Origin: Candidatus Poribacteria bacterium | Lineage (GTDB): Bacteria > Poribacteria > WGA-4E > WGA-3G | Assembly (NCBI GenBank): GCA_965242965.1 | Contig: OZ251518.1 | Span: 2,016,001-2,080,000 of the forward strand | Direction: 5' to 3' | DNA length: 64,000 nucleotides | In this document: piece after piece, positions 10,313 to 60,207 of the stretch | Numbering within the stretch: position 1 is the stretch's first letter | Layout: the number at the start of each line of letters is the position of its first letter | Made by a program: the position numbers and the translations under genes | The notes under the pieces: generated by a model | The model's database searches: none | What the model was told of the DNA's origin: nothing | Seen by the model: only the letters and a program-made list of their open reading frames with translations

Positions 10313-11058
10313 CGGTAGGAGAGCCCTCCCGGTCTTGACATTTTCCGGTAGGAGAGACCTCCTGGTCTCGATGCAATTCGGTAGGCGTTCACGAAAAAAA
10401 ACGCCACCCTTCCTCGTAGGGCTTGGGCCCTCGCATGCCACACGCGCAGGCGAGCGGGTTTCCCTCGCCAGCGTCCGCGCGCGCCAGACCTCCTCCCTCT
10501 GTAGGGCAGGATCGCCAGATCCTGACCCGTTTGTGATCAGGCGATCACAAACTACAGAGGGGGAGCTCACCGTAGGGCGAGGGCCTGTCCCTCGCCAGCG
10601 TTCATGCACGCGCACTCTAACGATCGCGGGGGACAGGCCCCCGCGCTACGGTGGAAAAAACGGTTTATGTTACCGTAGGGCGAGGGCCTGTCCCTCGCCA
10701 TGCCTCGCGCTACGAAAAAAACGTCTCTTAGGTCCGTAGGACCTTAATGTCTATAGCAGCCGAAACGCAAAAGGCACTAAGGTCCTTTAGGTCCTTAATA
10801 TTCTTTAACGCACAACATGTTTTCCCATTAAGGACCTAAAGGACCTTGACGTGGGACCTGCACGTTTTTCTATAGACATGTAGGTCCTAAAGGACCTAGA
10901 CGCACATCGTAATGATGGACAACGCGGGGGCCTGTCCCCCGCGCTACGGGAACATCGAGACCGGGAGGTCTCTCCTACGGCATTGCATCAAGACCAGGAG
11001 GTCTCTCCTACCCCAGGAGGACGCACCTACCGAACGCATCGAAATATGAAACACCCTC
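10313..11058. repeat. Mosaic REP-like array ending in TATGAAACACCCTC
   Basis: Several GTAG palindrome families plus AGGTCC-N-GGACCT/CTATAGACAT block. Confidence 0.9.
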
Positions 11059-11175: not shown

Positions 11176-14100
11176 TCACCGTTGGATAAACATTTTCCGC
11201 GTCGCACGGAAATGCCCCGCCTCAATAGTATAGAAATAAATGCCACTTGCCACAGGTTCACCGCTAGCATTCCTGCCATCCCAATACGCTGTATGCGCGC
11301 CGGCACGCTGATGTCCAACTGCCTTGACATGGACGCGCCTACCTGTCGCATCGTAAATGGACAGCGTGACAGGTGCCGCGGCGGCGAGTTGATACGGAAT
11401 CCATGTCTCCGGATTGAACGGGTTTGGATAGTTCTGCCCGAGGTGAAACACACCGCTGGACGACAGAAATGCCTGTTCCTGTTCTACAGAAAACTGCGAT
11501 GCATCTTCTACGGCGAGTTTAAAACGGTGCGGATGCACCTGAAAAACGCGCAATTGATACAGGTCAGCGACGTATAGAACGGGCGCGCCTGAGCCCGTTG
11601 TTTCAAGTTTGAGTTCAAAGGGATAGCGGAGTCCATCAAAACGTGAGATGGAGGTCAGCGCGTGCTTGTCAATAATCTGAAGGCTCTCGCTATCTAATAA
11701 ATAGAGATAGTTTTCATGCACTTCGGCATCAATAGGAAGCGCGCCGTTTGCGTAGAGTCCTATCTGTCTCGGTTTGTCCGGTTCACTAATGTCTAACACG
11801 ACAACGCCGACGCGGCTGTCCAACAGATACGCGCGTTCCGATGCTGGTGCAATTTCAGTCGCGTTGCCTTGCGTGGCGTAACTGGAGACGCGGCGAGGCA
11901 TAGCGGCTTCCGTAATGTCAAAAATGTGCATGCCACCTTCTAGGGCGGCAATGTAGGCGTGTGAACCGTCAACCGCAATCCGATAGGCACTGCCGCGCAT
12001 ATCACGTTCGGCGATAGTGACGAACTTGTCAAGTTCAACGACGATGAGGGATTCTGCGCAGAGGTAGGCGTAGTCTTCATGGATAGCGATGTCCGTAACA
12101 GGGTTCGCTGTCGGGATATGCGTTACAAGCGTGTTGCCTGCCAAATTGACAACGGACATCCCTGTTTCGGTTGCGACGAAGCCGCTAGGCGCGTTTTTCA
12201 AGCGCGCTACGCGGACTGTGGTGGCGGATGCCGGGAGGGGCAATGTCTGTGTCACGGTGCCGTCGTGAGGAGTTGTCAATTCAATAGTCTTCAATCCGCC
12301 TGCGCCGTTTGCGATGTAGACAGCGCGTTCTCCATTTGGCTGTTCGCTTGTATCAAGTCCGTACGCTGTGCCATCAGATGCGTAGCGGTGCGTCCATTGC
12401 GGCGCGTGCGGCGTGCTGACATCGATGGTTTGGATGCCCCCTTTTCCATCGGCGACGTAAGCGAAATTGCCCCACAACGCGACATCGTTTGCGTTTCCGA
12501 ACGTTGGCTGCGAAGAAAGCCATTGCGGTTGCTGAGGTTTGCGGACATTGATGAAGTGTAATCCCGCCTGCCGGTCTGTGAGATAAACGGTGTCGTTATG
12601 CAACTGAATGCCGGTTGCGAGCCCGGGGGTATCTAAACTGGCAATGATTTCCGGTTGGAGAACGCGAGGGACAGGTGCAGGGGGATTTTCGGCTTGAGCC
12701 TGGATATTGACAACGCGGAAATTGCCACCGGCGACGTAGACGGTGCCTGTATCTGTTACCGCAAAATCGTGCGCGAGGAGAGGGACAATGCCTTCTGTCA
12801 CAAAATTGCCGAGGGGACTCGGTTTGAGGATATGAAGTCCCTGCCTGCTATCGCTGAGATAGACGGTATCGTCCGCGATGGAGATATGGAGTGGAATGCC
12901 CGCGGTTTTAAAGAATCGCCGCGGCCTCGGCGTTGCAGCATTCTGCGTATCGGGTTGGTTAAAAACGAGCAGGCCGCGTTCATTATCTAGGACATAGACT
13001 TTTCCATCGGCGATGTGAACTTTGCTCGCGTTGGTGAAGCCGCCAAGCGTTTTGATAATTCTCGGTGCAGGCGGCGAATTGATAGCGATGAGATGCACGC
13101 CTCCCTCCCCATCGGCGACATACGCCGTATCGGCATCCACGGTGACTCCTTGTGCCTTTCCCGGCGTTGCGATTTCACCGACGCGGGCAGGTTTACCCGA
13201 ATCCGTAAGCGCGAAGATTTCTAATCCCCAATCGCTGGCTGCGCAAAGATAAGGTTCGCCAGTCTCGGTGAGGTGGATTGCGACATCATGATAGTCGCTG
13301 GCGAGGTGGAGTTGCGTCATCGGCTCAAGGATATAGGAGACATTCGATTTCTTCGCGCTTGGTTGCGTTCGGTTGCCGAGAGAATGGGTTATCGCGTGCG
13401 GTTCGCTTCGTGATTGAGTCGGTTGCCTCGGTTCGCCGACTAAGGGCAATTCGGGACCGGAGTTCCCTCCTACCGCGACATATCGGAGCGTTTGTGGCGC
13501 GTCTGCCGTTACTATCAGAACAATCTGGCCATTTTGTTGTAAGTCGTCAAACCGAATCTTTCCGTTATTTTGTGCATCGAATTCAATTATAGTGGACGCG
13601 CTTTGTAACCGCGTCGGTGCAGCGGAAGGCAAATAGAGTGCCGAGGCATGGAGGTTTCCAACTTCGTCTCCATTGAGCGCGATTTCAAGCGTTGATGGCA
13701 GATTTTGAAACAAGATGTAGTGCGCACCCCACGTTTCAATTGGGATAGTGTTAGCAGCAGTCGGGTAAGTGCGGACACGCCGGACGGTAGCCGTAACCTT
13801 CCGATTACGCAGGTTTTGATAACCAAGCTGTTTGGCGCGAGTGGTATTGTTCAGCCAATTGGCGAGTCCCCAGTTCAGAAAGGCATCTGCAAAACGTTCT
13901 TCAGTAGGAGAGCCTCCCCGTTCTTGTAATGCGTTCTCAATTGCCTGTTGTCCAAGGGCATCCTCTTCCACAATTTGGCGGATGAGGGGCGCGCCGCCAT
14001 ACTGTTCATAGAGATAGAGCAGCAGCATGAACGCGCCGCCGTAATAGATATTCGGGGTGTTGGCATAAGTGAGAGAAACTTCCGGGGCGGCGAGATAACC

Positions 14101-14859
14101 GTCGACATAAATCGTGTGGACATTACCGTAGACTGCCCATTCAGCGAAGCAGGCGATGCCTTCCTCTAGCCATCGCTGATCGGTGGTGCCGCCGTTCTGA
14201 AACCAGTTAATGAGATGTCCGAATTCGTGCGCGAGACTGCTGTAAAAGGTGTGTCGGGCGCGTTCACGGAACTGATAGATGTCCATGAACAGCATTTCGC
14301 GCCGATTGCTATTGTGTGCCGTTGGGAGCTGATCTGCCGGTGCGAAGTAGCCGCCATAATCACGTCCAGAGGCGTTCATGCCGACATCGTGCATCAACAG
14401 CGTAATGCGGTTGTCTCTATCGAGCCCCGGGCGGAATTCAGTGCCCATCCACTTGCGGACTTCAGGATAGATGCGCGCGTCAAACTCCGCCGCAATGGAT
14501 ACCGCTTCCGCATCCGTGAGTAGATGCCGCACCGAGTTTTCAACGTAGACGTAGAGGTGTGCGCTTATGGCGACGCAGGTAGCCTTCACCTCCATCTCTG
14601 GAATGTGGATAAAAAACCTGTCTATCTGTCCGAGTTGGACAGGGGCTGCGGGGGCATGTTCATCCAGCAGGAGAGCCCTCCCGTTCTCGATTTCTTCGTG
14701 TAGGTGATGGCGATGGGCAGCCCGCCGCGCCCTGTCAACCAGCAACGGAGTGCCGCACTGCCACGGGGCAGCACCGTAGGCATGCCAACCCTGTGTGAAG
14801 TCAACAGCGGACACCACAAGAAAAATGAGTATGAGGGAGAGAGAAAACTTTCTCATCAT
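11176..14859 (-). CDS. Secreted metallopeptidase-like protein with LVIVD repeats and FlgD-Ig/secretion-type C-terminal domain
   Basis: Signal peptide; AHEFGH...WLEEG zinc motif; repeated AYVADG.GG units; QNYPNPFNPETWIPYQL...WDGRNASGEPVASGIYFY. Confidence 0.85.
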   Translation of the reverse strand: MMRKFSLSLILIFLVVSAVDFTQGWHAYGAAPWQCGTPLLVDRARRAAHRHHLHEEIENGRALLLDEHAPAAPVQLGQIDRFFIHIPEMEVKATCVAISAHLYVYVENSVRHLLTDAEAVSIAAEFDARIYPEVRKWMGTEFRPGLDRDNRITLLMHDVGMNASGRDYGGYFAPADQLPTAHNSNRREMLFMDIYQFRERARHTFYSSLAHEFGHLINWFQNGGTTDQRWLEEGIACFAEWAVYGNVHTIYVDGYLAAPEVSLTYANTPNIYYGGAFMLLLYLYEQYGGAPLIRQIVEEDALGQQAIENALQERGGSPTEERFADAFLNWGLANWLNNTTRAKQLGYQNLRNRKVTATVRRVRTYPTAANTIPIETWGAHYILFQNLPSTLEIALNGDEVGNLHASALYLPSAAPTRLQSASTIIEFDAQNNGKIRFDDLQQNGQIVLIVTADAPQTLRYVAVGGNSGPELPLVGEPRQPTQSRSEPHAITHSLGNRTQPSAKKSNVSYILEPMTQLHLASDYHDVAIHLTETGEPYLCAASDWGLEIFALTDSGKPARVGEIATPGKAQGVTVDADTAYVADGEGGVHLIAINSPPAPRIIKTLGGFTNASKVHIADGKVYVLDNERGLLVFNQPDTQNAATPRPRRFFKTAGIPLHISIADDTVYLSDSRQGLHILKPSPLGNFVTEGIVPLLAHDFAVTDTGTVYVAGGNFRVVNIQAQAENPPAPVPRVLQPEIIASLDTPGLATGIQLHNDTVYLTDRQAGLHFINVRKPQQPQWLSSQPTFGNANDVALWGNFAYVADGKGGIQTIDVSTPHAPQWTHRYASDGTAYGLDTSEQPNGERAVYIANGAGGLKTIELTTPHDGTVTQTLPLPASATTVRVARLKNAPSGFVATETGMSVVNLAGNTLVTHIPTANPVTDIAIHEDYAYLCAESLIVVELDKFVTIAERDMRGSAYRIAVDGSHAYIAALEGGMHIFDITEAAMPRRVSSYATQGNATEIAPASERAYLLDSRVGVVVLDISEPDKPRQIGLYANGALPIDAEVHENYLYLLDSESLQIIDKHALTSISRFDGLRYPFELKLETTGSGAPVLYVADLYQLRVFQVHPHRFKLAVEDASQFSVEQEQAFLSSSGVFHLGQNYPNPFNPETWIPYQLAAAAPVTLSIYDATGRRVHVKAVGHQRAGAHTAYWDGRNASGEPVASGIYFYTIEAGHFRATRKMFIQR

Positions 14860-15418: not shown

Positions 15419-15425
15419 GATATTA

Positions 15426-15454: not shown

Positions 15455-15529
15455 AAAACAGAGATTTTCCTTGACATCGCGGTTAACTTTGTGGTATCAT
15501 AATAGAAAAACAAAAAGGAGGCATCTGTT

Positions 15530-16120: not shown

Positions 16121-16194
16121 GCCCTAAGCACAATAATAGGACGAGGCGATGAAACCCCGTGCTTCATTGCCTCTTCCCGCTAACAGACGAAAAC

Positions 16195-16700: not shown

Positions 16701-18395
16701 TTACCGAACGCCTCGCGAATGACGAATTTCCTCAATACGGATATGCCGATTCGGTTTGACGTTTTCAAGCGTATTCACGGCACCGCTTGGCCAGCGAACC
16801 ACGATTTTATCAATTTGAGCCCGGGAGGTATCTTCTACCGGCGTGCTATTGCCCAGTCCGAAGATGGCGGTGAGTTCACTCTGGGAGCAGTAACTTGAAC
16901 CGCTCTTGACGGTATGCGTCTGTGTGCCTAGCGCGGAGGTGACGCGAATTTGCGCACCGATGCCATCGCTGTTGCTAGTTTGCCCGATGAGCGAAATCTT
17001 AATCCACGCGTTGCGGTTACCTCCATCGTTACGAAAGAGATACGCGGGCCCGTTGGAGGTAGTCACAAGTAAATCCCAGTCGCCATCGTTATCAATGTCA
17101 CCGTAGGCGGCCCCTCTGCCGACAAGCGGTTTCCCCAGAGCAGCGTCAACATCCCTGAGGATATCCGTGAATTTGCCGTTCGCCTGATGATGAAATAGGT
17201 GCGGCGGCTGCGCGTACGTCACTTCACTCTGGATGGCGTTGATGTCCGTCTCCACATGTCCGTTGGCGGTGAAAATGTCTAGGCTTCCATCCAGATCGAA
17301 GTCAAAAAAGAAGCATGCGAAGGTGAGTGTCAACAGCGATGCATTCCCGATGTGCGCGATGGGGGCATCGTCAATAAAAAAGTCGCCTTCGTTGTGATAG
17401 AGGTTCAGCATCTCATTAGAAAAGTTCCCGATGACGAGGCTCTCCCGACCGCTTCTGTCGTAGTCCGCCGCGTCAATGCCCATAGCACCGGTGGCGATGC
17501 CGTTTTCGTTATAGGCAATGCCGGCGAGCATCGCTGTCTCGATAAACGTGCCATCGCCGTTGTTTTGATAGAGTTTATTGGGCTGCGTGTCGTTCGCTTC
17601 AAAGATGTCTGGCCAACCGTCGCCGTTGTAATCAAAGATACACACGCCGAGGGATTTGCTGGTGTTATCCTCAATCCGTGCGATGCGGGAGACATCGAGA
17701 AAAGTGCCATCGCCTCGGTTTCTAAAGAGTTTGCTCGCTTGCCCGGTGTAGGATTCGGGAGTGCAATAGGATTTGTTCGTGCCATCCAGCGTGCAGAAAA
17801 TATCAGTTTCGATGCTCCACTCCACATAGTTCGCGACGTAAAGATCGAGGTAACCGTCTCTGTTATAGTCAAACCACGCGCAGCTCGTTCCGAAGCCGGG
17901 GTTATGGATGCCCGCGGTTTCTGTCACGTCAAGGAACGTCCCATCGCCTTGATTTTGAAAAATCCGGTCGGTTTCAAGGCAGCTGATGTAAATATCCGAG
18001 TCTTTGTCGTTATCGTAATCTGCGACGGCGACTCCCATACCATAGAGCGGCACTGCGAGCCCGACAACTTCGGTGACATCGGTGAAGGTGCCATCGCGGT
18101 TGTTCCTGTAGAGTGCCATCGTCTGCCGTTTTCCGGTTGGGTGCCCTGGCCAATCTTTGCCGTTGACAATGAGAATATCCTGCCAGCCGTCCGAGTCATA
18201 GTCCAGAAAAGCGCAGCCTGAGCCCATCGTTTCGGGGAGATATTTCTCGCCGAAGGCACCGGTGTTATGCACGAAATTGATGCCTGCCGCGCGCGTGATG
18301 TCTGTCCATTGCGGTAGAGATTGCGGTAGAGATTGCGCTGAGACTGTGAGGTAGCCGCAGCAAATATAGCAGAGTAGGGTTGCTAACGTTTTCAT
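16701..18395 (-). CDS. CRTAC1-family FG-GAP / ASPIC-UnbV protein
   Basis: ETMGSGCAFLDYD, repeated DYDNDGxxD motifs, SGSSYCSQS...FGLG, WPSG. Confidence 0.92.
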   Translation of the reverse strand: MKTLATLLCYICCGYLTVSAQSLPQSLPQWTDITRAAGINFVHNTGAFGEKYLPETMGSGCAFLDYDSDGWQDILIVNGKDWPGHPTGKRQTMALYRNNRDGTFTDVTEVVGLAVPLYGMGVAVADYDNDKDSDIYISCLETDRIFQNQGDGTFLDVTETAGIHNPGFGTSCAWFDYNRDGYLDLYVANYVEWSIETDIFCTLDGTNKSYCTPESYTGQASKLFRNRGDGTFLDVSRIARIEDNTSKSLGVCIFDYNGDGWPDIFEANDTQPNKLYQNNGDGTFIETAMLAGIAYNENGIATGAMGIDAADYDRSGRESLVIGNFSNEMLNLYHNEGDFFIDDAPIAHIGNASLLTLTFACFFFDFDLDGSLDIFTANGHVETDINAIQSEVTYAQPPHLFHHQANGKFTDILRDVDAALGKPLVGRGAAYGDIDNDGDWDLLVTTSNGPAYLFRNDGGNRNAWIKISLIGQTSNSDGIGAQIRVTSALGTQTHTVKSGSSYCSQSELTAIFGLGNSTPVEDTSRAQIDKIVVRWPSGAVNTLENVKPNRHIRIEEIRHSRGVR

Positions 18396-21790: not shown

Positions 21791-24700
21791 TCATTTAATG
21801 TCATCTTCGGGAGATACCAAACAACGCTTATCGGCATCGGCATACGGACAGAACTGGCAGTGCGAGAGATTTTTTTCGTAACTGCCTCGCTGCAGATTAG
21901 CGATTGTCTCCTGCCCCCGCGGTGCAATCTCCTGCAACTCAGCGCGGCTGAAACGCAGCGTCTCGCACCGATTCTCAGCGGTAAAGAAGAGGTTAACGGT
22001 AACTTCGGGCTGCTCTGGATAACGCTGATGCACCAGCCACGCGTAAAGTTCCATTTGCGGGTGATATACCGCCACATCTGAAGTCTCGCCGGTTTTGTAA
22101 TCGATGAGCTGCCACTGTCCCGCTGCGTCCTTGAATAGCCTGTCCAACCTTCCGACAAGGAGATGTTGTTCGCCGAGCTCGGCGTGGATTTGCTGTTCGC
22201 AGCGGTTTGTCTCAGCGGATGCAAGCGCGGTTTGTCCCAATTCAGAATTGAGAAAGTTGTTGACATGCTCACGAACGGCTGCCTCGGAAACGCCGCGATA
22301 CCTGCGAACTTCGCTGCGAATCAGTGACGCAACCTTTTCCACGTCAGTCTGTCGTTCAATGCCCGAGAGGACAGCGTGAACGGCGCGTCCCATCTCGGTT
22401 CCATCCCACGCCTGTGCCTCTGCTTCATCGTAACTGTCTTCCTCGGAAGAAGCATCATGCTTGGGATTCGGAATTCGGAGGACGTTCTCTAGCCGATACC
22501 GCATTGGACACCGCGCATAATTTGCGAGCTCAGTAACGGCATAGGAATTCCCGATAGTCTGCGGATTTAGCGCGCTCAGCGGCGGTTCAGGCATATCCGC
22601 AGAGACAGCTTCTTCGGCTTTGGCATCCTCAACCTTGATGTCATCCAAGCACCGAAAAATCTCAATTGAGAGATGAAAAGCGTTACGGCTTGTTATGCCC
22701 TCTGAATAAGTTTCCAATTCAACAGGCAGGCACTGCGAACCTTCATCAGGCACACCGAGGTGCGTGTAGAGCCACTCCAGCATATTGCTTCGTTTGCCAT
22801 TTGCCTCTTGCGAGCCCGCTAAGATGAGCCGGTCGCGGGCACGCGTCGCGCCGACATAGAAAAGCCGTTTCTTCTCAGCTTCTGTCTTCACTTTCGCGCG
22901 TTCCTTCATCACGGTGACGATACTCGGCTCCGTTTTCGCGTAATCTTTAGCCGGGCTACGCGGACTAAAGCCGATGCCGAGTTCTTCATCAATAAAAGGT
23001 TCTTTGTCGCCTCGAGGGGCGCGATGCAGCCCCGGCAGAATGACGACTGGGAATTCCAGGCCTTTCGCTGCGTGGATAGTCATAATGTTGACAGCCTTGC
23101 CGCCAAGTTGAACCGGTGCTTGCCCTTCGCGCGGTTCCTCGTCAATCAAAATCCGCAGGAACTCAATGAAACTCGTCAACGTTGGCGTGTCGGCATCCCC
23201 CTCGAAGTTGCGTGCCAGGTCCAACAATTTTTGGTAATTCGCCCATCGCTGAGTTCCCTGCCGCCCGGTTGCCAGCGTGCCAATCATCCCAGTATCGTTA
23301 ACGATAGTGAGAAGAAGTTCGTTTACAGGGATGCGTTTTGCGAGTTCCCGCTGTCTTTTCAGACAGTCCATCGCTATTTGAAGTCGTGGATTCTCTGTAG
23401 GCGCGCTTTGTAAGCGCGCTTCCGCTTTCTCCCAGAAATTGTCACCCTTTTGCAGTGAAATCTCATAGAGCTCGGCATCAGATATACCGAAGAAAGGCGC
23501 GCGCAAAACGGCTGCGAGTGAGACATCGCCTTCGGCAGTTGCATCAAGAACGTGGAGGTAATTCCACATATCATAAATTTCCTGACGCTGATAGAAGCCG
23601 ATGCCGCCGGTGGTGAGGTAAGGGACTTTCGCCTCAAGCAGCGCGCTTTCGATATCCGGCAGATGGGTGCGGCTGCGGATGAGGATGGCGATGTCGCCGT
23701 ATTGAATCCGACGCAGCTTGTCGCTGTCTTTATCCCAAACCTGAAATCCTTCCGCAATCAGGCTTTTGACGCGCTTGGCGATGAGTTCATTCTCATTGAC
23801 GGCATCGTCGCCCTTTTGCCCGAGAATAATCTCGATTTTGCCTTGGGCTTCTGGCGTATTAGCACTCACTTCTGCCGGCGCAGGACGGCCTTGGACGAGT
23901 TGCTGATATGCAACCTCAAATTCGTTTTCGTTGCCATCACCCATCAGATTTTCAAAAAAAACATTGACAAATCCGATGACATCGCGAAGCGAACGGAAAT
24001 TTTCCTCCATGCCGATGGATGCGCCTTGCATCACTTCTATCTTCTTGCGGGTTTGGTTGAAAACCCGAATGTCGGCATCGCGGAACCCGTAAATACCCTG
24101 TTTCGCATCGCCGACGATGAACAGATTTGCGGCGTTGAGGTTGTCTGTCAAGAGCGTCACGAGCTCTTCCTGCACCGGGTTGATGTCCTGATACTCGTCT
24201 ACCATGAAGTATCGGTAGCGTGCCTGCAGTCGCTCTCGAATTTCCGCGTTGTTTTTGAGCAAATCACGGAGTTTGAGCTGCAGGTCTGGGTAGTCCAACT
24301 GGCCTTGCGCGAGTTTGGCGTGCCGATATGCCCGCTCTATCCGCGTGTAGAGATGGAGCACATCGCGAGTAGTGTCAATGAGGAAACTGTTGTCGTCGCT
24401 CAGCAGCTCTTTAAGAGTTTCCGAGGCTGACATCAAAAATTCAATCTCACTCTCAATGTCAATTGTCTTGACTCCGAGAAAATCTCTTTTCGCGACGGTT
24501 CCACTCTTCGTTCTAATGAGAGAGGCGATCTGGCTCAGGATATCTAGTATAACCGAACCCCTCTTTCCGGTCTCTTGATTTTCCTGTTCCAATTGTTCGG
24601 TTAATTCTCGAACCTCCGGTGCGTTTTTGCCTCTCGCGACTTTCAGCACAGCGTTCAGACAACGGAGCCATTCCTCTGTATCTGGTTTGTCCTCTACTCC

Positions 24701-30465: not shown

Positions 30466-33400
30466 TTACAAACGCAACACACTCAGCGTCGCTTTTTCGC
30501 CGTTGAGGTTTTCGACGCGGGTGAACGCATTTTCGCCCGGCACCTCAACGACTTCGGTGGTGAGCGTCTCACTGAGCACATAGTCCCGATGCGCCGCGAA
30601 CGCTTCGTCCACTAGCGGCGTAGCAGTGAGACTCAACTGAATCCGGTCGGCGACGTTAAAATCAGCCGCCTTCCGCAGGTTCTGGATTTTATTGACGAGT
30701 TCGCGCGCCAAACCTTCCAGCACCAATTCGTGCGTCAACGCCGTCGCCAACGCGACAAACTTCTGTGCATCCGCTTCCACGACGAAGCCTTCCCGATGCT
30801 GCGTTTGCACGTCGATTTCCTCGCGCGTGAGCGTGAACGTTTTTGTTGTTCGCGAGGTGTCGTTCATCTGCGACTGGGCAGCGGCCGTTGTCAAGTCTTG
30901 CATTTCCACTTGTATGCTGCCTGTGGATTCCAATGCTGTCTTCAGTTTTGCAGCATCTGCCGTGGCGAGTGCCTTCGCGATAGCTTGAACATCCTTGCCG
31001 TATTTCGGTCCCAGCACCTTGAAATTCGGTTTGAGCGTCACCTGCGCGAAGGCGTTCATATCCTCCGTAAAAGTGACAGATTTGACGTTGAGTTCGGCGT
31101 GAACTAACGCCACCAAGCGGGTGACGGTTGCCTGCTGTGCCGCGGATAACCCACCGATTGTCAGTTCCGAAAGCGGCTGCCGCGTCTTGATACCCGAACG
31201 ATTTCGCGCCGCATGCCCCATGCTGATAACCTCGCGCACGAACGCCATGTCTTCTTCCAGTTGCGCGTTTTCCAACGTCGCATCCGCGACAGGGTAGGAT
31301 ACCAAATGAACGCTTACCGGTGCATCGGCATTAAGCGAACCGACGAGGTTGCGGTAGAGCTCCTCCGCCAAAAACGGGATAAACGGCGCTGCCAATTTCG
31401 CAACCGTGACTAATACCTCATAGAGCGTGGCGTAGGCGGCGCGCTTATCCGGCCCCAATGCCGCACCCCAAAACCGGTCGCGTGAACGGCGGACATACCA
31501 GTTACTCAGGTCATCGATGAACGCCTCGATTGCGCGGGGCGCATTGGTAAGATGATAATTCTCCATCTCTTCCCGAACTGTGCTAGTGACGGTTTGCAAT
31601 CGCGCCAAGAGCCATCTATCCATGACAGAACGTTCGGCAGGGCTCGGAGCCTCTTCCAATACACCGCTTCCCTCGATATTGGCATACATGACGAAGAAAC
31701 TGTAGACGTTATGGAGGGTGCCCATGAATTTCTTCAGTGCTTCGTCAATTCTGTCAACTTTAAAGGCGCGCTGTGTCCACGGCGGACAGGCGGTGAACAT
31801 ATACCACCGCATCGCGTCCGCGCCCTGTTTGTCCAGAATCGTCCACGGATCTACGGTGTTACCGCGGCTCTTGCTCATCTTTTGCCCATCGGCTGCCATG
31901 ATGAGTTCATGGCAGAGGCAGTTTTTGTAGGCAGGCTTGTCGTAAAGGAGCGTGCCTGTCGCCAAGAGGCTGTAGAACCAGCCGCGCGTCTGATCGATGG
32001 CTTCGGAGATAAAATCAGGCGGATACGCTTGTGCCAGCATCTCCTGATTCTCGAATGGGTAGTGCCATTGCGCCGTGTGCGCGCAGCCTGAATCAAACCA
32101 GCAATCGATGACATCCGGCACGCGATGCATCCTGCCGCCGCACTTATCGCAAGTGAGAACGACATCATCGACATAAGGCCGGTGGAGTTCAATATCGTCC
32201 GGAACGTTCGTGCCTCGCTCTTTCAGTTCGGCGATACTACCGATGCAGTGCTGATTGCCACACGCATCGCATGTCCAGACAGGCAGCGGCGTTCCCCAAT
32301 AACGTTCACGGCTTAATCCCCAATCGACGTTGTTTTCCAGCCAATTGCCGAACCGTCCCTCTTTGATATGTTCCGGGTACCAGTTAATCTGCTGATTGTG
32401 CCGGAGCATCTGTTCGCGGATAGCGGTGGTGCGGATGAACCACGATTCGCGCGCGTAATAGAGCAACGGCGTATCGCACCGCCAACAGAACGGGTATTCG
32501 TGCTTATATTCGCTCGCCTTCAACAACAGCCCGCGCTGTGCGAGGTTTTCGGTGATACCTGCGTCGGCATCTTTCACGAATGTGCCTGCCCACGGTTCTA
32601 CTTCCGGCACAAACGTTCCATCCGGTGCCACCAACTGCACCAGCGGCAAGCCGTGTTTTTGCCCGATTTCGTAATCGTCTTGCCCGAATGCGGGAGCGAT
32701 ATGCACTAACCCTGTCCCGTCTTCAAGCGTAACGAAGTCACCGGCGACGACGTAGTGCGTGCGAGGGCCTGTCCCCCGCGCTGCGGTAGAAGGCGCATCG
32801 CTCGATGTGAAGTCAAACAGCGGTTCATACTCCCAATCGAGGAGTTCGTATCCTTTGTAGTGTGTCGTCATGTCCGGTTGTTCATCGCCAAACACTTTAG
32901 ACAAGAGTTCTTTTGCGAGGATGAGATGCTGTCCTTCATGCGCAACGCCGACGTAATCGTAATCTTCGCCCACGGCGATAGCCAGATTAGAGGGCAGCGT
33001 CCACGGAGTCGTCGTCCAGACGAGCAGGTAGGTGTTCTCCTGATTTTTGACTGGGAATTTCACGTAAACAGAAGGGTCTGCCACAGTCTTGTAACTGAGC
33101 GAAACCTCGTGTGTAGCAAGGGTTGTCCCGCATCGGCAGCAGTAAGGTTGCACCTTGTGTCCCTGATACAGGAGTTCCTTATCCCATGCTTGCCGCAGCA
33201 CCCACCACACGCTCTCAATGTAATCGTTTGACAGCGTGATGTAGGCATCGTCTAGGTTCACCCAGAACCCGATGCGTTCTGTCATCAGCCGCCATTCCTG
33301 TTCGTATTGGAAGACGTTCTCCTTGCATTTTTCGATGAAGTTCTCAACGCCGTAAGCCTCAAGTTCAGCCTTATTTGTGATATTGAGCTGCTTTTCGACC

Positions 33401-35907: not shown

Positions 35908-36100
35908 CCGCATCGCGGGGAAACCTATCCCTCGCCCATCGTTTCATAGTTTCTCGAGACCGGGAGGTCTCTCCTACTGGGACGCATTGGCCTGTCCCTC
36001 GCCAGCATCTCGTAGTTTCGTAGTGCGAGGGCCTGTCCCTCGCAATCGTCTCATCTTCTAATTTCGTAGTGCGAGGGCCTGTCCCTCGTGCTTTGCCTCT
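35908..36100. repeat. REP-like array
   Basis: GTAGTGCGAGGGCCTGTCCCTCG and GAGACCGGGAGGTCTCTCCTAC units. Confidence 0.85.
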
Positions 36101-43109: not shown

Positions 43110-43625
43110 TCTCGATGCCTTCCCGGTAGGAGAGCCCTCGGGTCTCGATGTTCCCGTAGCGCGGGGGACAGGCCCCCGCGAGGCTCAAGAACCGTTTTTT
43201 TCACCGCAGCGCGGGGGCCTGTCCCCCGCGAGGGCTCAAGAACCGTTTTTTTTAGCGTAGCGCGGGGGCCTGTCCCCCGCGAGCTCTCTCGTGCACCAGG
43301 GCACGGCGAGGGACAGGCCCTCGCCCTACGGTGACAGGACGGCGTTTTTTTCACCGCAGCGCGGGGGCCTGTCCCCCGCGAGGGCTCAAGAACCGTTTTT
43401 TTTAGCGTAGCGCGGGGGCCTGTCCCCCGCGATCTCCATCGTCACGATGTGTATTTCTCCCACTGTAGTTTGTGATCGCCTGATCACAAACAGGTCAGGA
43501 TCAGGCGATCCTGACCTACAGAGGTGGGCCCAATGCGCTCCGGTAGGAGGGACATCCCTGTCCCGATATGAAACACATCGAGACCAGGAGGTCTCTCCTA
43601 CGGGGAAAACGCTTGCAGCGAGACC
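43110..43625. repeat. Mosaic REP-like array (left direct repeat of the DUF499/DUF1156 cassette)
   Basis: Same unit order and linkers as 49838-50274. Confidence 0.9.
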
Positions 43626-43645
43626 GGGAAGGCTCTCCTACGGGG

Positions 43646-46138
43646 CTACACCTCCTCAACCACAATCCCCAACGCGCGCAGACTCTCCAACAACTCTTCG
43701 TAAGCCTCCTGCGAGATTTGACCGGATGAGGCCCGCAACTCTAACTGCACACTCGTTCCTAACGCGTTGAGAGACTGCGCGACATTGCTCATCTTTCCCT
43801 GAGGCAACGTAAAACGGATGCCGATAGGTGGACTTGGAACTGGCGTTGGAGTCGGCTTTGGCACTGGCGCGGGTTCCGGCACAGGCCTTACATCTGGTTC
43901 AACGAGCTGCCCTGTGCAAAGCGAAGGTTGAATAATTACCTCGTTATCGCCAAGCGTGACTTCTGCAGCTTCTTGCATGAAAGCGCGCGTGAGGAACTCA
44001 CCTCCCACTCTCTCACCGATGCCAAATTGCCCCTGCGCCACGCCTTGGCGGATACCCGTTATCCACGCCTCGCGAAGCACGCGCTGCTCACCCGGTGTGC
44101 GGAGACTGGAGGAATGGAGCTGCGCCGTTGATACCGTATCGTTATCCTTCAGATAACGGTGGGCGATGTTCTTCGGCCCGATGCTGGTCAAGATTTCCCC
44201 CTTCATACAGAGCATCTCGTAAACTTTCTCATCCAGCCGTGTGTTCATCCCAATCGCGGGGAGCCCGAGGTCTTCCTCACGAAAGCCGTCTCGTGTCGGA
44301 ATTAAGAGGGTGCGATAATCTTGGCACACCGCATCGGTGAGCGCGCTCGCAGCTTGCCGCAATTGCGTCTTTACCTCCTTTTGTTGCTCATCGGATAAAT
44401 TCAGGGAGTTATCGTCCCTAATTGCCTCATAAGCGAGGACGCGCTTCACTTCAGTCTGCAGCTTCCCCGCGCTTCCGGCAAAAGGCACGAGGAAAAAGAG
44501 CGTGTTGCGATAGGTGCGCGGGGTTTCGCCGCGCATCTCCAGCAGGTTTCTGCAGAACGCATCGTCCCGTTGCGACAGCACAATGAGTTTCAGGTCTGGG
44601 GTATCCGCGATGTCCATTCCATTTCGCGGAGAAATGAACGTCTTCATCTTGGCACCGGGTTTAGTGGAGAAACTCCGTTTAATCTGTGCCTCGGCACGCG
44701 ATGCGACTTCGGCATCGTCCAGATTTTCCATCCGAATCTGCAAAATCCGCGTTAAGTTGGGTTGCGTGTCAAAATAAGCCTTCCCATTTTCGGTGCGCAG
44801 ATAAGAGAGATGCGCTCCCAACTGCGCCATCGCCGAATCGATGACAGAGGCAGTATCGGGAAGACGCGCCGCACTCCGCTTCACCTGTTCCAAACTCGCG
44901 CCGCGCTTCTGTCCACCCGTGAAAGAGTAGAGAAAGACTGCTGTCGCCGCCCGCGTGCCCAGTCGCAAATGCCTTAACGTATCACCCAGTGCTTCATCCG
45001 CCACCTTCGCGCCTGCATCCGCCGCGGTAATGTCGTTTGAGATGATGCTGCTAAACACGTTGCCAGCGTGCCTTAAGAGCTCCCCGCGGATGTCGGCATC
45101 GCGCAAGTCAAAATCGGCGAGGGAGATGTAGGGCAGATGTTTGCCGCGGCACCGATGCACGACTCGCGAGAGGAGCCGCAGCACGCCGCGCGTCCGCTGA
45201 AAATTCGGGAAACTCCCCCACCGATGATACAACACATCGATGACCTCGGGTTGAAACGGATAACTTGCGATAAACCGTTCGCGATATTCGGATTTTTGCT
45301 GGCCGGGCGGCAGTATGGATTCGCTGTCGGCATAATTCGCGAAGTCGCGGGCAATCCGCTTCGCGACACCGAGGTCAACTTCGGAGAACAATCGGCTACG
45401 AATGATGTTGGCAATTTCGGAGTCGTCCACCGGCGTTCCAACGCGCGCCATTCTATCCAGCAGCTTTTTAAACTCATTCGACAAGGCTGTCGCGCCGTAA
45501 TCCTCGTTCGCACCCGATTGCCGCGTCGCTATCAAGGCGACGTTGTTGCAGGAACGCACCGCCTCCATCAAGTTATGAACAAACCGCAGTGCCTGTTTTG
45601 CCAACGTGCTTCTGCCAATGTCAACCGCCTCGGCTGCCGCGAGATAATTCAGCACCTCGTCCATTAAAATCACGACAGGTTTTCCAACGCCGGTGAGGCG
45701 TTCGGCAATCTTCTCACTCCCCGGTGCCCGATGCCCGTGAAAGTGTTGCATCTCGCCGATTAACTGCGTTTCCAATGCGCCCCAGAGCGTCTGCTCGGCT
45801 TCCATGCCGGTGCCGACGAGGACTACCGGCTTCGCTTTCCACTCGTTCGCTTTGTGGAACAGCGTGATGAGCGTGTGGGTTTTCCCACCACCGAACGGGG
45901 TTTGCAACTGAATGACAGCATCGCCGCCGCGGCCTTTCACTCGGCGTTCTACCCCATGGAGCAGCTGCTTCAACCCCCCGGTCATGTAAGTTTTCTGGAA
46001 AAACCGCTTGGCGTGTCGGTATTCAACGGGTCCTTCGTCTTTTGCCACGTCGCCGAGGTTTGCGGCGTAGGTATCCAAAGTGAAATTGCCGCGTAAAATA
46101 TCGTTGTGCGGCATGGCGATTGTCTCAAATCCTGCCAT
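43646..46138 (-). CDS. DUF499-family AAA+ ATPase
   Basis: PH.DI..G, FF.KTYMT, QLQTPFGGGKTH, ILMDE, YPFQP, FQRTRGVLRLL; AGGAG before ATG 46138. Confidence 0.9.
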   Translation of the reverse strand: MAGFETIAMPHNDILRGNFTLDTYAANLGDVAKDEGPVEYRHAKRFFQKTYMTGGLKQLLHGVERRVKGRGGDAVIQLQTPFGGGKTHTLITLFHKANEWKAKPVVLVGTGMEAEQTLWGALETQLIGEMQHFHGHRAPGSEKIAERLTGVGKPVVILMDEVLNYLAAAEAVDIGRSTLAKQALRFVHNLMEAVRSCNNVALIATRQSGANEDYGATALSNEFKKLLDRMARVGTPVDDSEIANIIRSRLFSEVDLGVAKRIARDFANYADSESILPPGQQKSEYRERFIASYPFQPEVIDVLYHRWGSFPNFQRTRGVLRLLSRVVHRCRGKHLPYISLADFDLRDADIRGELLRHAGNVFSSIISNDITAADAGAKVADEALGDTLRHLRLGTRAATAVFLYSFTGGQKRGASLEQVKRSAARLPDTASVIDSAMAQLGAHLSYLRTENGKAYFDTQPNLTRILQIRMENLDDAEVASRAEAQIKRSFSTKPGAKMKTFISPRNGMDIADTPDLKLIVLSQRDDAFCRNLLEMRGETPRTYRNTLFFLVPFAGSAGKLQTEVKRVLAYEAIRDDNSLNLSDEQQKEVKTQLRQAASALTDAVCQDYRTLLIPTRDGFREEDLGLPAIGMNTRLDEKVYEMLCMKGEILTSIGPKNIAHRYLKDNDTVSTAQLHSSSLRTPGEQRVLREAWITGIRQGVAQGQFGIGERVGGEFLTRAFMQEAAEVTLGDNEVIIQPSLCTGQLVEPDVRPVPEPAPVPKPTPTPVPSPPIGIRFTLPQGKMSNVAQSLNALGTSVQLELRASSGQISQEAYEELLESLRALGIVVEEV

Positions 46139-46185
46139 GGGCGTGTTCTCCTTATAGATTTTCATATGCTAGCGTTCCTGCAATA

Positions 46186-47079
46186 CCGTAGGAGAGACCT
46201 CCCGGTCTCGATTTCCCGGTAGGAGAGACCTCCTGGTCTCGATTTTTCCCGTAGCGCGGGGGCCTGTCCCCCGCGAGCGTTAGATTGCGCCGACGATGGC
46301 GAGGGACAGGCCCTCGCCCTACGATGACAGGGACCGTTTTTTACCGTAGCGCGGGGGCCTGTCCCCCGCGAGCACCGATGAAGGGGGTGACGTTTTTTTT
46401 CGTAGCGCGGGGGCCTGTCCTCCGCGAGCGTTAGATTGCGCCGACGATGGCGAGGGACAGGCCCTCGCCCTACGATGAGGGACAGGCGTTTTTTTCACCG
46501 TAGCGCGGGGGCCTGTCCCCCGCGATCTCGGATGAAGGGAGTGGCGTTTTTTTCCCGTAGCGCGGGGGCCTGTCCCCCGCGAGCGCACCCGCGAAAAACA
46601 TCTCTTCAGGTCCTTTAGGTCCTGCATGTCTATAGTATCCCGCCGACAGAGAAGAGCCCTAAGGTCCTTTAGGTCCTTAATAGGCACCGGACACATCGCA
46701 GCAGAAAAGATTAAGGTCCTACGGACCTTGAGGACTTGGCGGGCTCCGCGTGCTATAGACATTAAGGTCCTACGGACCTAAGAGGCGTTTTTTATCGTAG
46801 CGCGCGTTGGATTGCGCCGACGATGGCGAGGGACAGGCCCTCGCCCTACGGTAACGAGGAAACAGCCTTGCAAACCGTAGCGCGGGGGCCTGTCCCCCGC
46901 GATCACACGCGTACCCGAAAGCACGGCGAGGGACAGGCCCTCGCCCTACGGTGACGAGGGGCTTTCTGCCGCCCTATTGCATCGAGACCGGGAGGTCTCT
47001 CCTACCGGCAATTCCCCGTTTTTTCAACGGCGCGCGGGAGCCTGGCACCGCGACGTTGAACCATTTATGAAACCCCCTC
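46186..47079. repeat. Large mosaic REP-like array separating DUF1156 and DUF499
   Basis: Many inverted REP pairs; ends in TATGAAACCCCCTC overlapping the DUF1156 stop codon. Confidence 0.92.
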
Positions 47080-49734
47080 GTTAATCCCCTCCACGATTTC
47101 CGCGACCTCCCGCTGAATAGCACCCCGGCCCGCGCACCAACCCTCCAGCCACAAACGCTCCCGGCTATCCGTCGGTAAAGCATCACTAATTTCTTTCGCA
47201 ACGTTCCAGATGAGTTCATTCAAACCGATTCGCCCGCGCGCGAGCCGCTGAATCATCGCATCACGTTCACCAGAACTCCACAGAAGCAAAGCGTGATGCA
47301 ACACATCAATCAACTCCTCGCTATTGGATAAAGTGGAGACATCCCTGTCTTGCGGGCCGAGGACGCGGATAAACGTTTTCTCCCTGCGGATGAAACTCCC
47401 GGCACCCCACTCCACCGCGAGTTCAAGCCCAAGGGATTGCGCGAGTTTGTTCGCGTCATTGAAGGGGACAGGCTTCTCGCCGTTTTCGCGCCGCCACCGG
47501 AGGTAGAACCGCGTCAGGTGACTCCCGGCTGCACCCGCCTGTTCGCCATCAAAACGTTCCAATATCGCCCGGATATCCTCAATCATCTGCCCGGCACGAA
47601 TAGGCTCGTCATCGTGATCAAGCACCTCTCGGTATTTGCCAAACACCTCAATGCCGCCGCCGATAGCCGCTATGAACAAGTCTGCCCCGGAAAAACCCCA
47701 CTCCCACAAGGTGAACAACTTCTCTTTGAGGTGAACCTCTAGTTCTTGGAGAACTTCCCGATAAGTCCCCCACTCTTCGCGCTCCGTTTTCCGGGCAACC
47801 ATGTAGATGGAAGAGGCGAGGGCTGCAGAATTGTAACTCCGCCAACGCACCTTCTTCTCCGTATCAATCGGCCACGCGGCGGTAACTACAAGACCCGAGT
47901 CAAGCAAGGCGTTTATCATTGCCTCCCATCCCTCGGTTGACTTGTGGGCATAGACAATGACAGCAATCCCGTTCGGTTTCAGCACCCGATGCATCTCCGA
48001 GAACGCTTTCGTCAGTCCTGTTTCAAAAAAGCGTTTTCCTGCCTCCCATCCGCCTTTTCGGTGCCCATACGCGACGATTTCCTCATCTTTCGGCGTGAGA
48101 GATTTCTCAAACAGTTCTGGATAGAGGTATCCCACGCTTCGCTTGAGCCAGACGTAGAAGAGATCGGAGAGGTAAGCGTAGGGAACGTTATCGTAATAGG
48201 GCGGATCCGTTAACACCGCGTCGAAAGTGTTATCGGGATAGGGAAGAGCTGTCGCTGAGGCTTGTTGCACGGTAGCCGGGGGGACATCCATTTGCGACAG
48301 ATGCTCCATCGGTTTTGAAACGGTTTTCACGCGATTCGCTGCCACGTGAAACGGATTCGCTTCCCCGTAATCCCAAACCATGGGCATGGTTTGCATCCCA
48401 AAGAGTTTGACAACAGACTCATTGCTATTACCCCACGGGCAGAGACTTGAACCTTTGTCGGCTATCCGGTCCAGCCACAATCCCAAGTAGGTTGTGACAG
48501 CACGCGCATAGTCCGCGGCGCAGTCCTCTTGGGTAAGCATCGCCGAGTGTGCATCCCTGATCTTATCAGTAAAGGTAATCAACGCGAGTTGCTGGCGCGC
48601 ATTGAAGAGCTCACCATACGTATTGAAATTGTAATTGTGAATGGCAATAGCTCTTTCTGCGCCGGGACCTTTTATTTTTGGCGTTGGCTCATCTGGCACT
48701 GGGGCGAATCCCCATTTTTCCTTGAGCAACGCCTGTTTTTCAAGGAGACGGCTTTGTGCCTCTCTGAAAACTGCCTCATCCTCATCCGTGGCCAGGCGAT
48801 ACCGTTTGCCTGTCACGTTTGGACGGTGAGTGACGACAGCAACCATTTTTTCGCCTGCCATCCCTTCCTGAAACAGGCGGCGCGTGTCTTTCGCCGGGAT
48901 AGTGTTTTTACAGAGAGGACAGGTAACAACGGCTTTCGTGACCGATCCGGCGGCGGGTTTGAAGTCGTCCGGGGTGGGTTCATATCCGGGCCCTACGATG
49001 CGGAAGGCAAGCGCGCCATCTGCATCGTAGGGATAGAGCGCGATGTCTTTATTCCCTGCGAGCCAAAATTGGCCCATCAGGGGAATAGTAGCCGAGCATC
49101 CCAGATTCTGGCACGGTAACGTGCGCGCCCAGATGTAGGCGAAAACGTTAGCACCGTCGGCTTCCTTTAGATAGAACGGTGCCAATTCTGGTTCCGCTTG
49201 TTCGATGACCCGGGTTGCCCATTTTTGGAAATCGTCGTGGAGGCGTTGGCCGTATTTTTGCGGGTATTCAAGCGTGCATTTCTGAATAAGCACGGAGACA
49301 GGATTGAGATCGCAGGAGTGGGTTTCGCAACCGAGGCGGAGTGCTTCCAACGGAATCGCGCCGCGTCCACCGAACGGGTCGAGCACCTTGGGTGGTTTCC
49401 CATCGTGGGATTCCAAGATGTCGCGGCGGGCTTGCTCAATCCAGAGTGGTTTGAGCGCGTTTTCCCACTTGGCGAGTTCAGCGATGAAAACTTGCTTGTG
49501 CGTCGGTTCTAGCGGATTGTCAGAAACCCTACTTGTTTGTGAAGTGAAGGGGGGGGGGGTTATGAGTGCGGCATAAGCCGTGGCACGCGAGGGTCCGAGA
49601 GGTCGGCTTGCCCACCAGATGTGGAGTCCGGTTATCTGCTGCCTATTTTTGTCTTTGCGTCCCTGTTCGCTGACTTCTTCAACAGGGAAAGCGATTTCGA
49701 TGATGCGTTTGTCGTTGCTCACGCGAGTCTCCAT
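47065..49734 (-). CDS. DUF1156-family adenine-specific DNA methyltransferase
   Basis: LHIWWASRP, DPFGGRGAIPLEALRLG, DLNPV, TDPPYYDNVPY, WPIDTE, ALASS. Confidence 0.92.
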   Translation of the reverse strand: METRVSNDKRIIEIAFPVEEVSEQGRKDKNRQQITGLHIWWASRPLGPSRATAYAALITPPPFTSQTSRVSDNPLEPTHKQVFIAELAKWENALKPLWIEQARRDILESHDGKPPKVLDPFGGRGAIPLEALRLGCETHSCDLNPVSVLIQKCTLEYPQKYGQRLHDDFQKWATRVIEQAEPELAPFYLKEADGANVFAYIWARTLPCQNLGCSATIPLMGQFWLAGNKDIALYPYDADGALAFRIVGPGYEPTPDDFKPAAGSVTKAVVTCPLCKNTIPAKDTRRLFQEGMAGEKMVAVVTHRPNVTGKRYRLATDEDEAVFREAQSRLLEKQALLKEKWGFAPVPDEPTPKIKGPGAERAIAIHNYNFNTYGELFNARQQLALITFTDKIRDAHSAMLTQEDCAADYARAVTTYLGLWLDRIADKGSSLCPWGNSNESVVKLFGMQTMPMVWDYGEANPFHVAANRVKTVSKPMEHLSQMDVPPATVQQASATALPYPDNTFDAVLTDPPYYDNVPYAYLSDLFYVWLKRSVGYLYPELFEKSLTPKDEEIVAYGHRKGGWEAGKRFFETGLTKAFSEMHRVLKPNGIAVIVYAHKSTEGWEAMINALLDSGLVVTAAWPIDTEKKVRWRSYNSAALASSIYMVARKTEREEWGTYREVLQELEVHLKEKLFTLWEWGFSGADLFIAAIGGGIEVFGKYREVLDHDDEPIRAGQMIEDIRAILERFDGEQAGAAGSHLTRFYLRWRRENGEKPVPFNDANKLAQSLGLELAVEWGAGSFIRREKTFIRVLGPQDRDVSTLSNSEELIDVLHHALLLWSSGERDAMIQRLARGRIGLNELIWNVAKEISDALPTDSRERLWLEGWCAGRGAIQREVAEIVEGINEGVS
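49549..49559 (-). repeat. C11 homopolymer tract in the coding strand of the DUF1156 methyltransferase
   Basis: G11 on the + strand, encoding T-P-P-P near codon 60. Confidence 0.85.
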
Positions 49735-53124: not shown

Positions 53125-53465
53125 GATCGCGAGGCCAAGAAACCTCTCACACACCGTAGGGCGGGGGCCTGTCCCCCGCCGGGCTCGGGTCGCCGAACGA
53201 TCGCGAGGGACAGGCCCTCGCGCTACGGGACAGGGGACAAGAAACCTTTCACACACCGTAGGGCGGGGGCCTGTCCCCCGCCGTGCCTCGGATAATCGAA
53301 AACGCTCTTCATGACCTACGATCGCGAGGGACAGGCCCTCGCGCTACGGTGGGGGCGGAAACCTCTCTCATACCGTAGGGCGGGGGCCTGTCCCCCGCCA
53401 GGCCTCGGTCGAGGAAAACGCTCTTCACAAACAACGATCGCGAGGGACAGGCCCTCGCGCTACGG
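53125..53465. repeat. REP-like array of variant inverted pairs
   Basis: GTAGGGCGGGGGCCTGTCCCCCGCC / CGCGAGGGACAGGCCCTCGCGCTAC, three pairs. Confidence 0.9.
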
Positions 53466-53559
53466 CCCGAGACACGGTGAAAGTTTTACAATTTTTCTTG
53501 ACATTCACCTTGGAAATCCGTTATACTATTTTCATATTTTATACAAAAAGGAGAAAAAC

Positions 53560-58932: not shown

Positions 58933-60114
58933 TCAGGCAAAAGAAGGACGCGCGCCCAGACAATCACGCCCCAAAACATAAACCCGTATCTGCTCCCACT
59001 TCCGCTTGGACCGGTGCGTTGCAACTCGCCTTTTAAAAACATCGCACACCCGAAACCCTGCCGATGCAATTATCCGCTCCATGTTCTCAATCGCCTTCGG
59101 ACCGGAGGCATCCGCATACCCTAATAAAATCGTGCCTTCCGGTTTCAGGAAATTCGGAGCCTGCGCAAAAAACCTTTCTAACGTCCGCTGCTTCTCATCG
59201 TGGATGGCGAGTTCAGATCGGTTCCGAGCTCGCATGACTACCCACGGTGCATTGAAGAGAATCAGATCGAATGACTGATGCGATGGAAATTCTTCAAATA
59301 GATCGCCGGGAGGCATGACGTGGATGTGCGTGTCTTCAGGATAAATCCGTTGGATATTTAATCTTGTCGTTGCTACCGCTTCGGAGAGGAGATCGGATGC
59401 GTGGAGGGTAACATCGGCACCTAATTCTTGCCGCGCGAGCAGTGTTAAAACACCGCAGCCGCAGCCGATGTCGGCGGCAAAAATCGAGACCGGGAGGTCT
59501 CTCCTACGGGCGAATGCCTGCAACGCTTCTTGAAAGCATTCAACTGTCTCTTGTGAGCGCGGCGGGAGGACGTTTTCGGAGGCGACGAGGGATGCATCGA
59601 GTGCGTTGACTGGATACGTCGTCTCAAGCGCGCTCTGGATGCGTTGGACGGACGCGACAGGGACGAGAAATGGATGCCCTTCGTTCGCGCCGGGAGGTTC
59701 GCCGATAAGCTCCAAGAGATAGGGCAAATCGGGAGATGGATCTGTCTGCAATGTGCCTTCTGCATCTGCCCAGCATAAGAGACGCGCGTAAGCCTCTTCT
59801 AAACGCGCGCGGGAAATAGCTCTTCCCGGCCGCGAGTGGCGATTGCCTTTCGCGCGCGAAGCTGATTTATAGGCGTGCGCCGGTGTCACAGCATTTTTGT
59901 GGCGGCGAATGTAGTCCATCACCACCATAATTTGTTCCCAAGCCCCTTGGACTACAGCGACACCGCCTCGCTCAATATGCGTGGAAATCCGACCGAGGTG
60001 CACTAAGTCCTGATGCGCGAACAATTTCACGCGCCCGCGCGCGAAGACTGCGTCGCGGATGGCAGTGGGGACGTAGAGTGTGCCGATGTTGGTGACGGAA
60101 TAGAAGGTGTTCAT
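58933..60114 (-). CDS. Class I SAM-dependent methyltransferase (PrmC/MTS-like)
   Basis: ADIGCGCG, GDLF, FDLILFNAPW; start reassigned to ATG 60114. Confidence 0.8.
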   Translation of the reverse strand: MNTFYSVTNIGTLYVPTAIRDAVFARGRVKLFAHQDLVHLGRISTHIERGGVAVVQGAWEQIMVVMDYIRRHKNAVTPAHAYKSASRAKGNRHSRPGRAISRARLEEAYARLLCWADAEGTLQTDPSPDLPYLLELIGEPPGANEGHPFLVPVASVQRIQSALETTYPVNALDASLVASENVLPPRSQETVECFQEALQAFARRRDLPVSIFAADIGCGCGVLTLLARQELGADVTLHASDLLSEAVATTRLNIQRIYPEDTHIHVMPPGDLFEEFPSHQSFDLILFNAPWVVMRARNRSELAIHDEKQRTLERFFAQAPNFLKPEGTILLGYADASGPKAIENMERIIASAGFRVCDVFKRRVATHRSKRKWEQIRVYVLGRDCLGARPSFA

Positions 60115-60207
60115 GAGGAAAACGGCGATGGAGAATATGCCGGCGCGCAGCCGAGGCATGGCGAGGGACAGGCCCTCGCCCTACGATTCGGTGGAAACTA
60201 TTTGGGA

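Follow-up and report, generated by a model that had tools for sequence, protein, structure and literature searches.

A methyltransferase loop in a clade of Candidatus Poribacteria that seems to have been rewritten repeatedly by REP elements

A methyltransferase gene of Candidatus Poribacteria carries, just before the codons of its SAM-binding motif, a perfect copy of a 25-nt repeat whose family is mostly extragenic in the 64-kb window (the whole stretch of 64,000 nucleotides analysed here). The locus raises the question of how such an element comes to lie within a conserved reading frame, and whether it arrived by a recent insertion, as an earlier note on this DNA had supposed. Comparison with relatives suggests more than a single insertion, as the loop has seemingly been rewritten repeatedly by REPs.

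Read on the minus strand, the 25-mer consists of a GTAG tag, GA, a stem arm of 6 bp, a 4-nt loop, the second stem arm and GAT (Table 1). It was called a REP in the earlier note, and its features agree: the GTAG tetranucleotide lies 5' of and outside the stem, the size is within the 20 to 40 nt of elements with a short palindrome, and 29 of the 33 sites of its family (C) are outside genes, with ten tandem pairs among them. The hairpin folds weakly (z -2.1). Four exact copies are present in the window, three of them intergenic, including that at 46981 to which the earlier note had pointed, and 21 matches with three or fewer mismatches were found in the window as against none in each of 100 shuffles. 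The exact variant accounts for 3 of 28 intergenic training copies of the family, a one-base variant being commoner (8/28). The gene-internal copy is single, with no other copy of families A to E within 650 nt, so it does not form a REPIN or BIME; the arrays of relatives are likewise head-to-tail rather than inverted. Nor does it resemble a MITE or IS insertion, as no flanking duplication was visible by eye and none of 26 close relatives has an empty site. Rfam gave no match across the window.

The element is read through within the predicted ORF (58933-60159, minus strand), with the frame intact as had been claimed. Its first base is the second of an Arg codon, and its last base is the second of an Ile codon. 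The peptide RRDLPVS is wholly encoded by the REP, and the flanking Arg and Ile partly. The position given earlier for RRRDLPVS also stands, the Asp of DIGCGCG being the fifth residue after the Ser.

Table 1. Positions of the methyltransferase, its REP and related elements in the window
Feature	Position	Strand	Remarks
Class I SAM-dependent methyltransferase	58933..60114	-	393 aa; distantly HemK/PrmC/N6AMT1-like
SAM-binding motif I (DIGCGCG)	59452..59472	-	Intact in 26/26 clade proteins checked
Family-C GTAG REP in methyltransferase	59483..59507	-	In frame, residues 203-211 of 393
Parts of this REP	Tag 59504-59507; GA 59502-59503; stem arms 59496-59501 and 59486-59491; loop 59492-59495	-
Spacer 5' of tag	59508..59517	-	10 nt; Ala-Phe-Ala plus one base
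Family-A REP just upstream of methyltransferase	60160..60184	-	Adjoins the ORF-caller's ATG at 60159
Exact intergenic REP copy	46981..47005	-
Exact intergenic REP copy	46188..46212	+	Member of tandem pair
Exact intergenic REP copy	10954..10978	-	Tandem pair, 33-nt spacing
B-type element	11574..11599	+	ATAG tag, 9-bp stem, GCCT loop; antisense in LVIVD/FlgD gene 11176-14859 (-)
Second in-gene family-C copy	14667..14691	+	Antisense in LVIVD gene
Decayed family-A REP in IleRS	32756..32784	.	11-residue insertion relative to solved IleRS 8c8u
Family-E REPs	23397-23419 (UvrD); 12185-12207 and 13592-13614 (LVIVD)		Recurring ARLQSAPT-like peptide
Degenerate family-C copy	16814-16838		Inside FG-GAP/ASPIC gene

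The host protein has a small, Rossmann-like methyltransferase domain (Pfam MTS, 40.2 bits against a cut-off of 23) with a GxGxG motif and a matching class I fold, and the closest solved structures in the PDB are N6AMT1 and HemK (E about 1e-5). Its likeness to HemK, PrmC and N6AMT1 consists of these PDB matches, the best NCBIfam matches and the common class I fold. It scores far below the PrmC/HemK equivalog cut-offs in NCBIfam (52.3 against 199.1 for TIGR03534; 34.6 against 115.5 for TIGR00536), HemK has NPPY where the Poribacteria protein has NAPW, and the N-terminal half also differs. FNAPW, like motif I, is retained in 26/26 clade proteins. Translation is likely to start at the ATG at 60114, not at 60159 as in the predicted ORF, and the Met at 60114 is invariant in 23/23 aligned sequences.

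Relatives of the protein belong to Candidatus Poribacteria, both among the named protein matches and at 75 of 80 genome loci; the other five loci are labelled uncultured bacterium. Against L001, the closest genome locus (86% identity), dN/dS with the loop removed was 0.18 at a dS of 0.34, and that of the neighbouring oxidoreductase was 0.11. By codon comparison the methyltransferase gene is under purifying selection. AlphaFold places the REP peptide between the helix 188-202 and strand 212-216 (beta-1), with a local pLDDT of about 82 in a model that has 63 as a whole. P0001, which has a three-copy array, was modelled with its core intact (mean pLDDT 82) and with the array as a loop of low confidence upon it. 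At the C-terminus the clade proteins are extended by about 10 residues (window 58936-58965), which are missing from the majority of the distant relatives. The surroundings of the gene differ between the two loci: L001 has about 6.5 kb of extra genes (approximately 8270-16390; Nal1-like, WD40, papain-like and LRR) between the methyltransferase and an HlyD gene, and these are missing from the corresponding place in the window.

The loop was compared in the best 120 of 676 protein matches and in 80 of 115 genome loci, the close protein matches being 90% cluster representatives. A well-supported clade of 27 comprises 25 proteins (83 to 94% identity), L001 and the window. Comparison with orthologs had been proposed as a way to find the empty site; all 26 close relatives hold a REP-derived loop, 21 of another REP type and five with two or three copies. 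The C-type loop thus occurs in 6 of the 27, with one copy in the window, two in P0002 and three each in P0001, P0003, P0005 and P0006. The other 21 have a B-type loop, with the peptide NRTGSPEPV or a near variant; it is unchanged in 17 of 20 proteins and has point changes in three. In L001 the DNA that encodes the B peptide is a perfect 9-bp hairpin with ATAG as tag and GCCT as loop, and the distance from its tag to the following Ala-Asp codons is the same as in the window. These are the one B allele and the one C allele seen as DNA; the others are known as peptides. The L001 element resembles intergenic family B (8408-8433). The back-translated fit of the B subtype to that copy is at background level, and the exact subtype has no intergenic copy in the 64-kb window plus a further 17 kb (81 kb).

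Back-translation separates the clade sharply from its distant relatives. At best, 6/6 C loops fit the family-C REP with 0 to 1 mismatches and 20/20 B protein loops fit the L001 element with 0 to 2, as against at least 5 (C) or at least 6 (B) in 95 distant loops. The distant loops are 9 to 14 aa long (10 aa in 56/95) compared with 14 aa in the window and 14 to 36 aa across the clade. Since they are only 0 to 5 residues shorter than the window's loop, the REP replaced residues, and its eight or nine codons were not simply added. A perfect loop stem of at least 6 bp was found at 2 of 79 distant loci (L043 and L065), neither of them tagged; the untagged 8-bp stem of L065 may be due to chance or be another decayed element. 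The density of tagged hairpins per 10 kb is 12.3 for the window and 8.1 for L001; the other loci have a median of 0, and two of them reach about 9. A constant 13 nt separates the first C copy from the Gln codon. Further copies are spaced at +33 nt, except in P0005, where the steps are +21 and then +33. Steps of 33 nt in these arrays are consistent with selection for frame, as only 4 of the 10 intergenic tandem spacings are divisible by three. Protein searches are blind to frameshifted alleles, so the constant frame is partly a matter of ascertainment.

The two loop types do not follow the gene tree as reconstructed from sequences with the loop removed. P0004 (94% identical) is of the window-group type at 17/19 diagnostic residues, yet it has a B element at the same offset and in a loop of the same length (14 aa) as the window, an apparent length-neutral swap. 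P0005 belongs with the B clade at 19/19 diagnostic residues, yet it has a C array. Both changes are confined between residues 184 and 238. In a careful tree of 20 of 121 proteins, a single clade of C alleles was rejected (p-AU 1.8e-5) and four state changes were needed, of which the starred branches force two. In a 37-row tree from a quick search, the starred branches force three. P0004 and P0005 are on short contigs (3.4 kb and 58 kb) and could be strain mosaics.

Similar passengers occur elsewhere in the window. A profile census, keeping sites above a shuffled-codon null, gave 127 sites in families A (69), B (18), C (33) and E (7). Genes cover 82% of the window and hold eight of the 127, in five genes. 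Besides the methyltransferase copy, seven REP-like copies lie in four other unrelated genes, including those for IleRS and UvrD, and in both orientations (Table 1). The element at 11574 fails the family-B profile, and its assignment rests on a match of 25/26 nt to the methyltransferase-loop element of L001. It adds five residues net; this insert is present in the window and in 8/9 close homologs, and absent from the ninth and from 109/109 parsed distant homologs (two were unparsed). At 14667 the window has one unit, and P0123 (95% identical) is 22 aa longer, with three similar units. Clade-specific insertions occur at several places in the LVIVD/FlgD protein; as many as seven of them have REP-like DNA, and one near 12650-12680 resembles family A by eye. 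A candidate at 13449, at first barely above the null, fell below it in the final census and was dropped. Copies at 53319-53463 and 36070 were left out before the census, being in probable mis-called starts. When 203 candidate proteins were searched for the C peptide there were six matches, four of which were the methyltransferase itself; P0121 and P0122 have arrays at N-termini that were judged to be mis-called starts and are not counted as in-gene insertions. False N-terminal extensions of this kind were seen at 53311-53500, 36069-36100 and 60114-60159, and in P0004, P0121 and P0122.

A family D, tagged ATAGACA, is also present, making at least five tagged families, and most intergenic spaces are REP-filled. 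Genes with DUF499 and DUF1156/methylase domains (43646-49734) lie between dense REP arrays, and their pairing may point to a BREX-related or restriction-type defence locus. Elsewhere in the window are three tandem 201-aa paralogs (2765-4646; spacing 643 and 633 nt), the first of which has no Pfam or NCBIfam match.

How old is the window's copy? The neutral chance that 25 nt stay unchanged over half the distance to L001 is 0.015, and the present sequence of the 25-mer is probably young. Perfect identity would be expected by chance in 29 to 61% of cases on branches of 0.05 to 0.02 substitutions per site, so it cannot date the event finely. The earlier proposal of a recent insertion is borne out in so far as the sequence is probably young; that the site was empty beforehand is not supported. 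A single, recent arrival of the REP at a formerly empty site would account for the 25/25 identity with three intergenic copies and for the small chance of remaining unchanged over the depth of the clade. It is nevertheless very improbable, given that none of the 26 close relatives, their proteins being 90% cluster representatives, has an empty site, that five of the six C alleles are multi-copy and that the net gain over the 95 distant loops is only 0 to 5 aa. An assembly artefact, in which a repeat was mis-joined or an array of tandem copies was reduced to a single one, is hardly credible, because the peptide occurs at this offset in five independent database proteins, three of which are on contigs of 5.0 to 5.8 Mb. 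It is true that at two sites the window shows a single unit and close relatives show three. However, its assembly resolves intergenic tandems at 29 to 40 nt spacing, and collapse of an array would alter the copy number only and leave the finding as it is. Domestication of the in-gene REP, for example as an expression-tuning mRNA hairpin or as a loop tuning the enzyme, is also quite improbable. Some REP is kept in 27/27 clade alleles, in sense orientation in the two seen as DNA, and the B peptide varies little; against this, the B and C peptides are unrelated, the loop ranges so widely in length, it is short and unconstrained in the 95 distant relatives, and comparable passengers sit in unrelated genes in either orientation. 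The REP peptide is most likely a neutral passenger.

The patchy distribution itself can be read in other ways. If the ancestral array was a mixed one, with B and C units next to each other in frame, differential loss by lineage would give a patchy tree with no special enzyme, and intergenic clusters do combine families (43465-43641). We regard this as improbable, as none of 27 alleles has both types and both start at the same offset in 14-aa alleles. A single change from B to C, followed by short-tract recombination among co-occurring strains, with array size set by slippage, is possible though somewhat unlikely. The 5' spacer, Ala-Phe-(Ala/Ser), and the offset are common to all six C alleles, which fits a single origin no less than repeated swaps; this counts against repeated overwriting, as does the small number of changes (two to three) that the starred branches force. 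The four residues before the first copy are the same in P0005 and P0003, and within P0003, as within P0006, a near-identical spacer recurs, which slippage would predict. At residues 184 and 238, however, each of the two discordant alleles retains its own backbone, which would limit tracts to about 160 bp or less between genes that are some 13% diverged. The array spacers also vary (MSPS, TNTG, TPSG, MPSP); they are not copied from the flanks of the gene and look intergenic-like by eye. B and C are alike only in tag and length, so ordinary gene conversion should not be able to interconvert them.

The loop is thus very probably a site of REP turnover. The explanation that we favour overall, and consider fairly probable, is a REP-tolerant loop in which spacer-plus-REP units are swapped by a RAYT and selected for frame. 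The loop between the helix and beta-1 would tolerate almost any sequence and has become, in one REP-rich clade of Poribacteria, a standing REP site. A RAYT (HUH tyrosine transposase) may recognise the tag and hairpin on single-stranded DNA and cut nearby, and a spacer-plus-REP unit of about 33 to 35 nt from the genome's REP pool would be swapped in. Units would be gained or lost by 33-nt steps, only frame-preserving products surviving selection. The spacer 5' of the window's tag differs between C-type and B-type alleles and is therefore counted within the swapped unit of about 35 nt, whose boundary is estimated from the peptides and a single comparison of DNA, with L001. The direction was probably from B to C: C is abundant, whereas the tag of B is a variant one, three B proteins show point changes, and 81 kb contain no intergenic copy that matches B exactly. 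The window's single copy may be the basic unit or a shrunken array. Whether repeated overwriting by a transposase, rather than shuffling of alleles, explains the scatter is close to evenly balanced, leaning slightly against.

Pfam searches for a RAYT among 37 window proteins and another 72 ORFs from the window and L001 gave none, nor did NCBIfam on seven ORFs or a HUH-motif scan of the window and 80 loci (1.53 Mb), these scans being crude. With neither the window, L001 nor the loci yielding a RAYT, we can only infer the swapping enzyme. CT and CA cleavage dinucleotides at the junctions were discarded as evidence because they are too common. More tentatively, and on balance doubtfully, a domesticated REP transposase may repeatedly overwrite and expand REPs in coding loops, so that these loops, including those of IleRS and UvrD, track the active REP family.

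The ingredients of this process are separately known, as far as the accessible parts of the papers cited here go. Intragenic REPs with a GTAG or CGTC tag are on record as singles, dimers and clusters inside ORFs (Di Nocera 2013, PMC3733652). The catalogued hosts include methyltransferases (Opitutus terrae Oter_4002), IleRS and UvrD, and in Xanthomonas recB roughly the same site is occupied by different REPs (PMC3733652). The Poribacteria elements resemble these in being tagged short palindromes in ORFs, with overlapping kinds of host gene, but the accessible text of that survey reports no length-neutral type swap in one codon register, copy-number series or tree test. REP overwriting is known from extragenic sites: in Pseudomonas chlororaphis, 13 of 20 fully conserved cases of orthologous extragenic spaces have REPINs of different type (REPORTH), which is attributed to overwriting by RAYTs (bioRxiv 10.1101/2024.10.14.618302). 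There too the orthologous site stays occupied and the REP type changes, but those REPINs are extragenic inverted doublets, in contrast to the single or head-to-tail, frame-bound copies in a conserved gene described here.

TnpA-REP/RAYT recognises single-strand GTAG hairpins, cleaves 5' or 3' of them and joins strands (PMC8266576). Family C is like the GTAG-GA REPs of Pseudomonas and Xanthomonas in its GTAG, GA, palindrome and GAT end (PMC2817692, PMC3686654). It differs from them, as described there, in that a cognate RAYT was sought without success in the window, L001 and the loci, in its host, Candidatus Poribacteria, and in the presence of at least four tagged families in 64 kb. In-frame repeats have been reviewed (PMC3184786). 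Rickettsia palindromic elements are likewise in-frame palindromic repeats inside functional genes, among them those of tRNA and DNA enzymes, but are described as about 105 to 146 nt long or CGTC-tagged, compared with the GTAG- or ATAG-tagged Poribacteria unit of 25 to 26 nt (PMC3733652, PMC3184786). The open-access literature, to which our search was confined (subscription papers and preprint supplements lay outside it), gave no account of Poribacteria REPs and none of REP-type swapping together with array growth inside one coding loop.

Evidence for spread and replacement of REPs in vivo has so far come, in the accessible parts of this literature, from cleavage in vitro and from extragenic comparison, in which boundaries are blurred. 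Where a swap falls in a conserved gene, codons that can be aligned enclose it on both sides, so the replaced spacer and REP (about 35 nt) and their junctions are legible and could be tested with purified transposase. For annotation of Poribacteria genomes, REP-derived peptides and false N-terminal extensions are a hazard. If the IleRS is the only one of the genome, REP inserts would be tolerated even in an essential gene. The methyltransferase loop points to a route by which non-coding repeats may supply and replace protein loops. If repeated overwriting by a transposase is the true cause, in-gene sites would record exact natural RAYT junctions, and REPs would be a standing source of loop variation.
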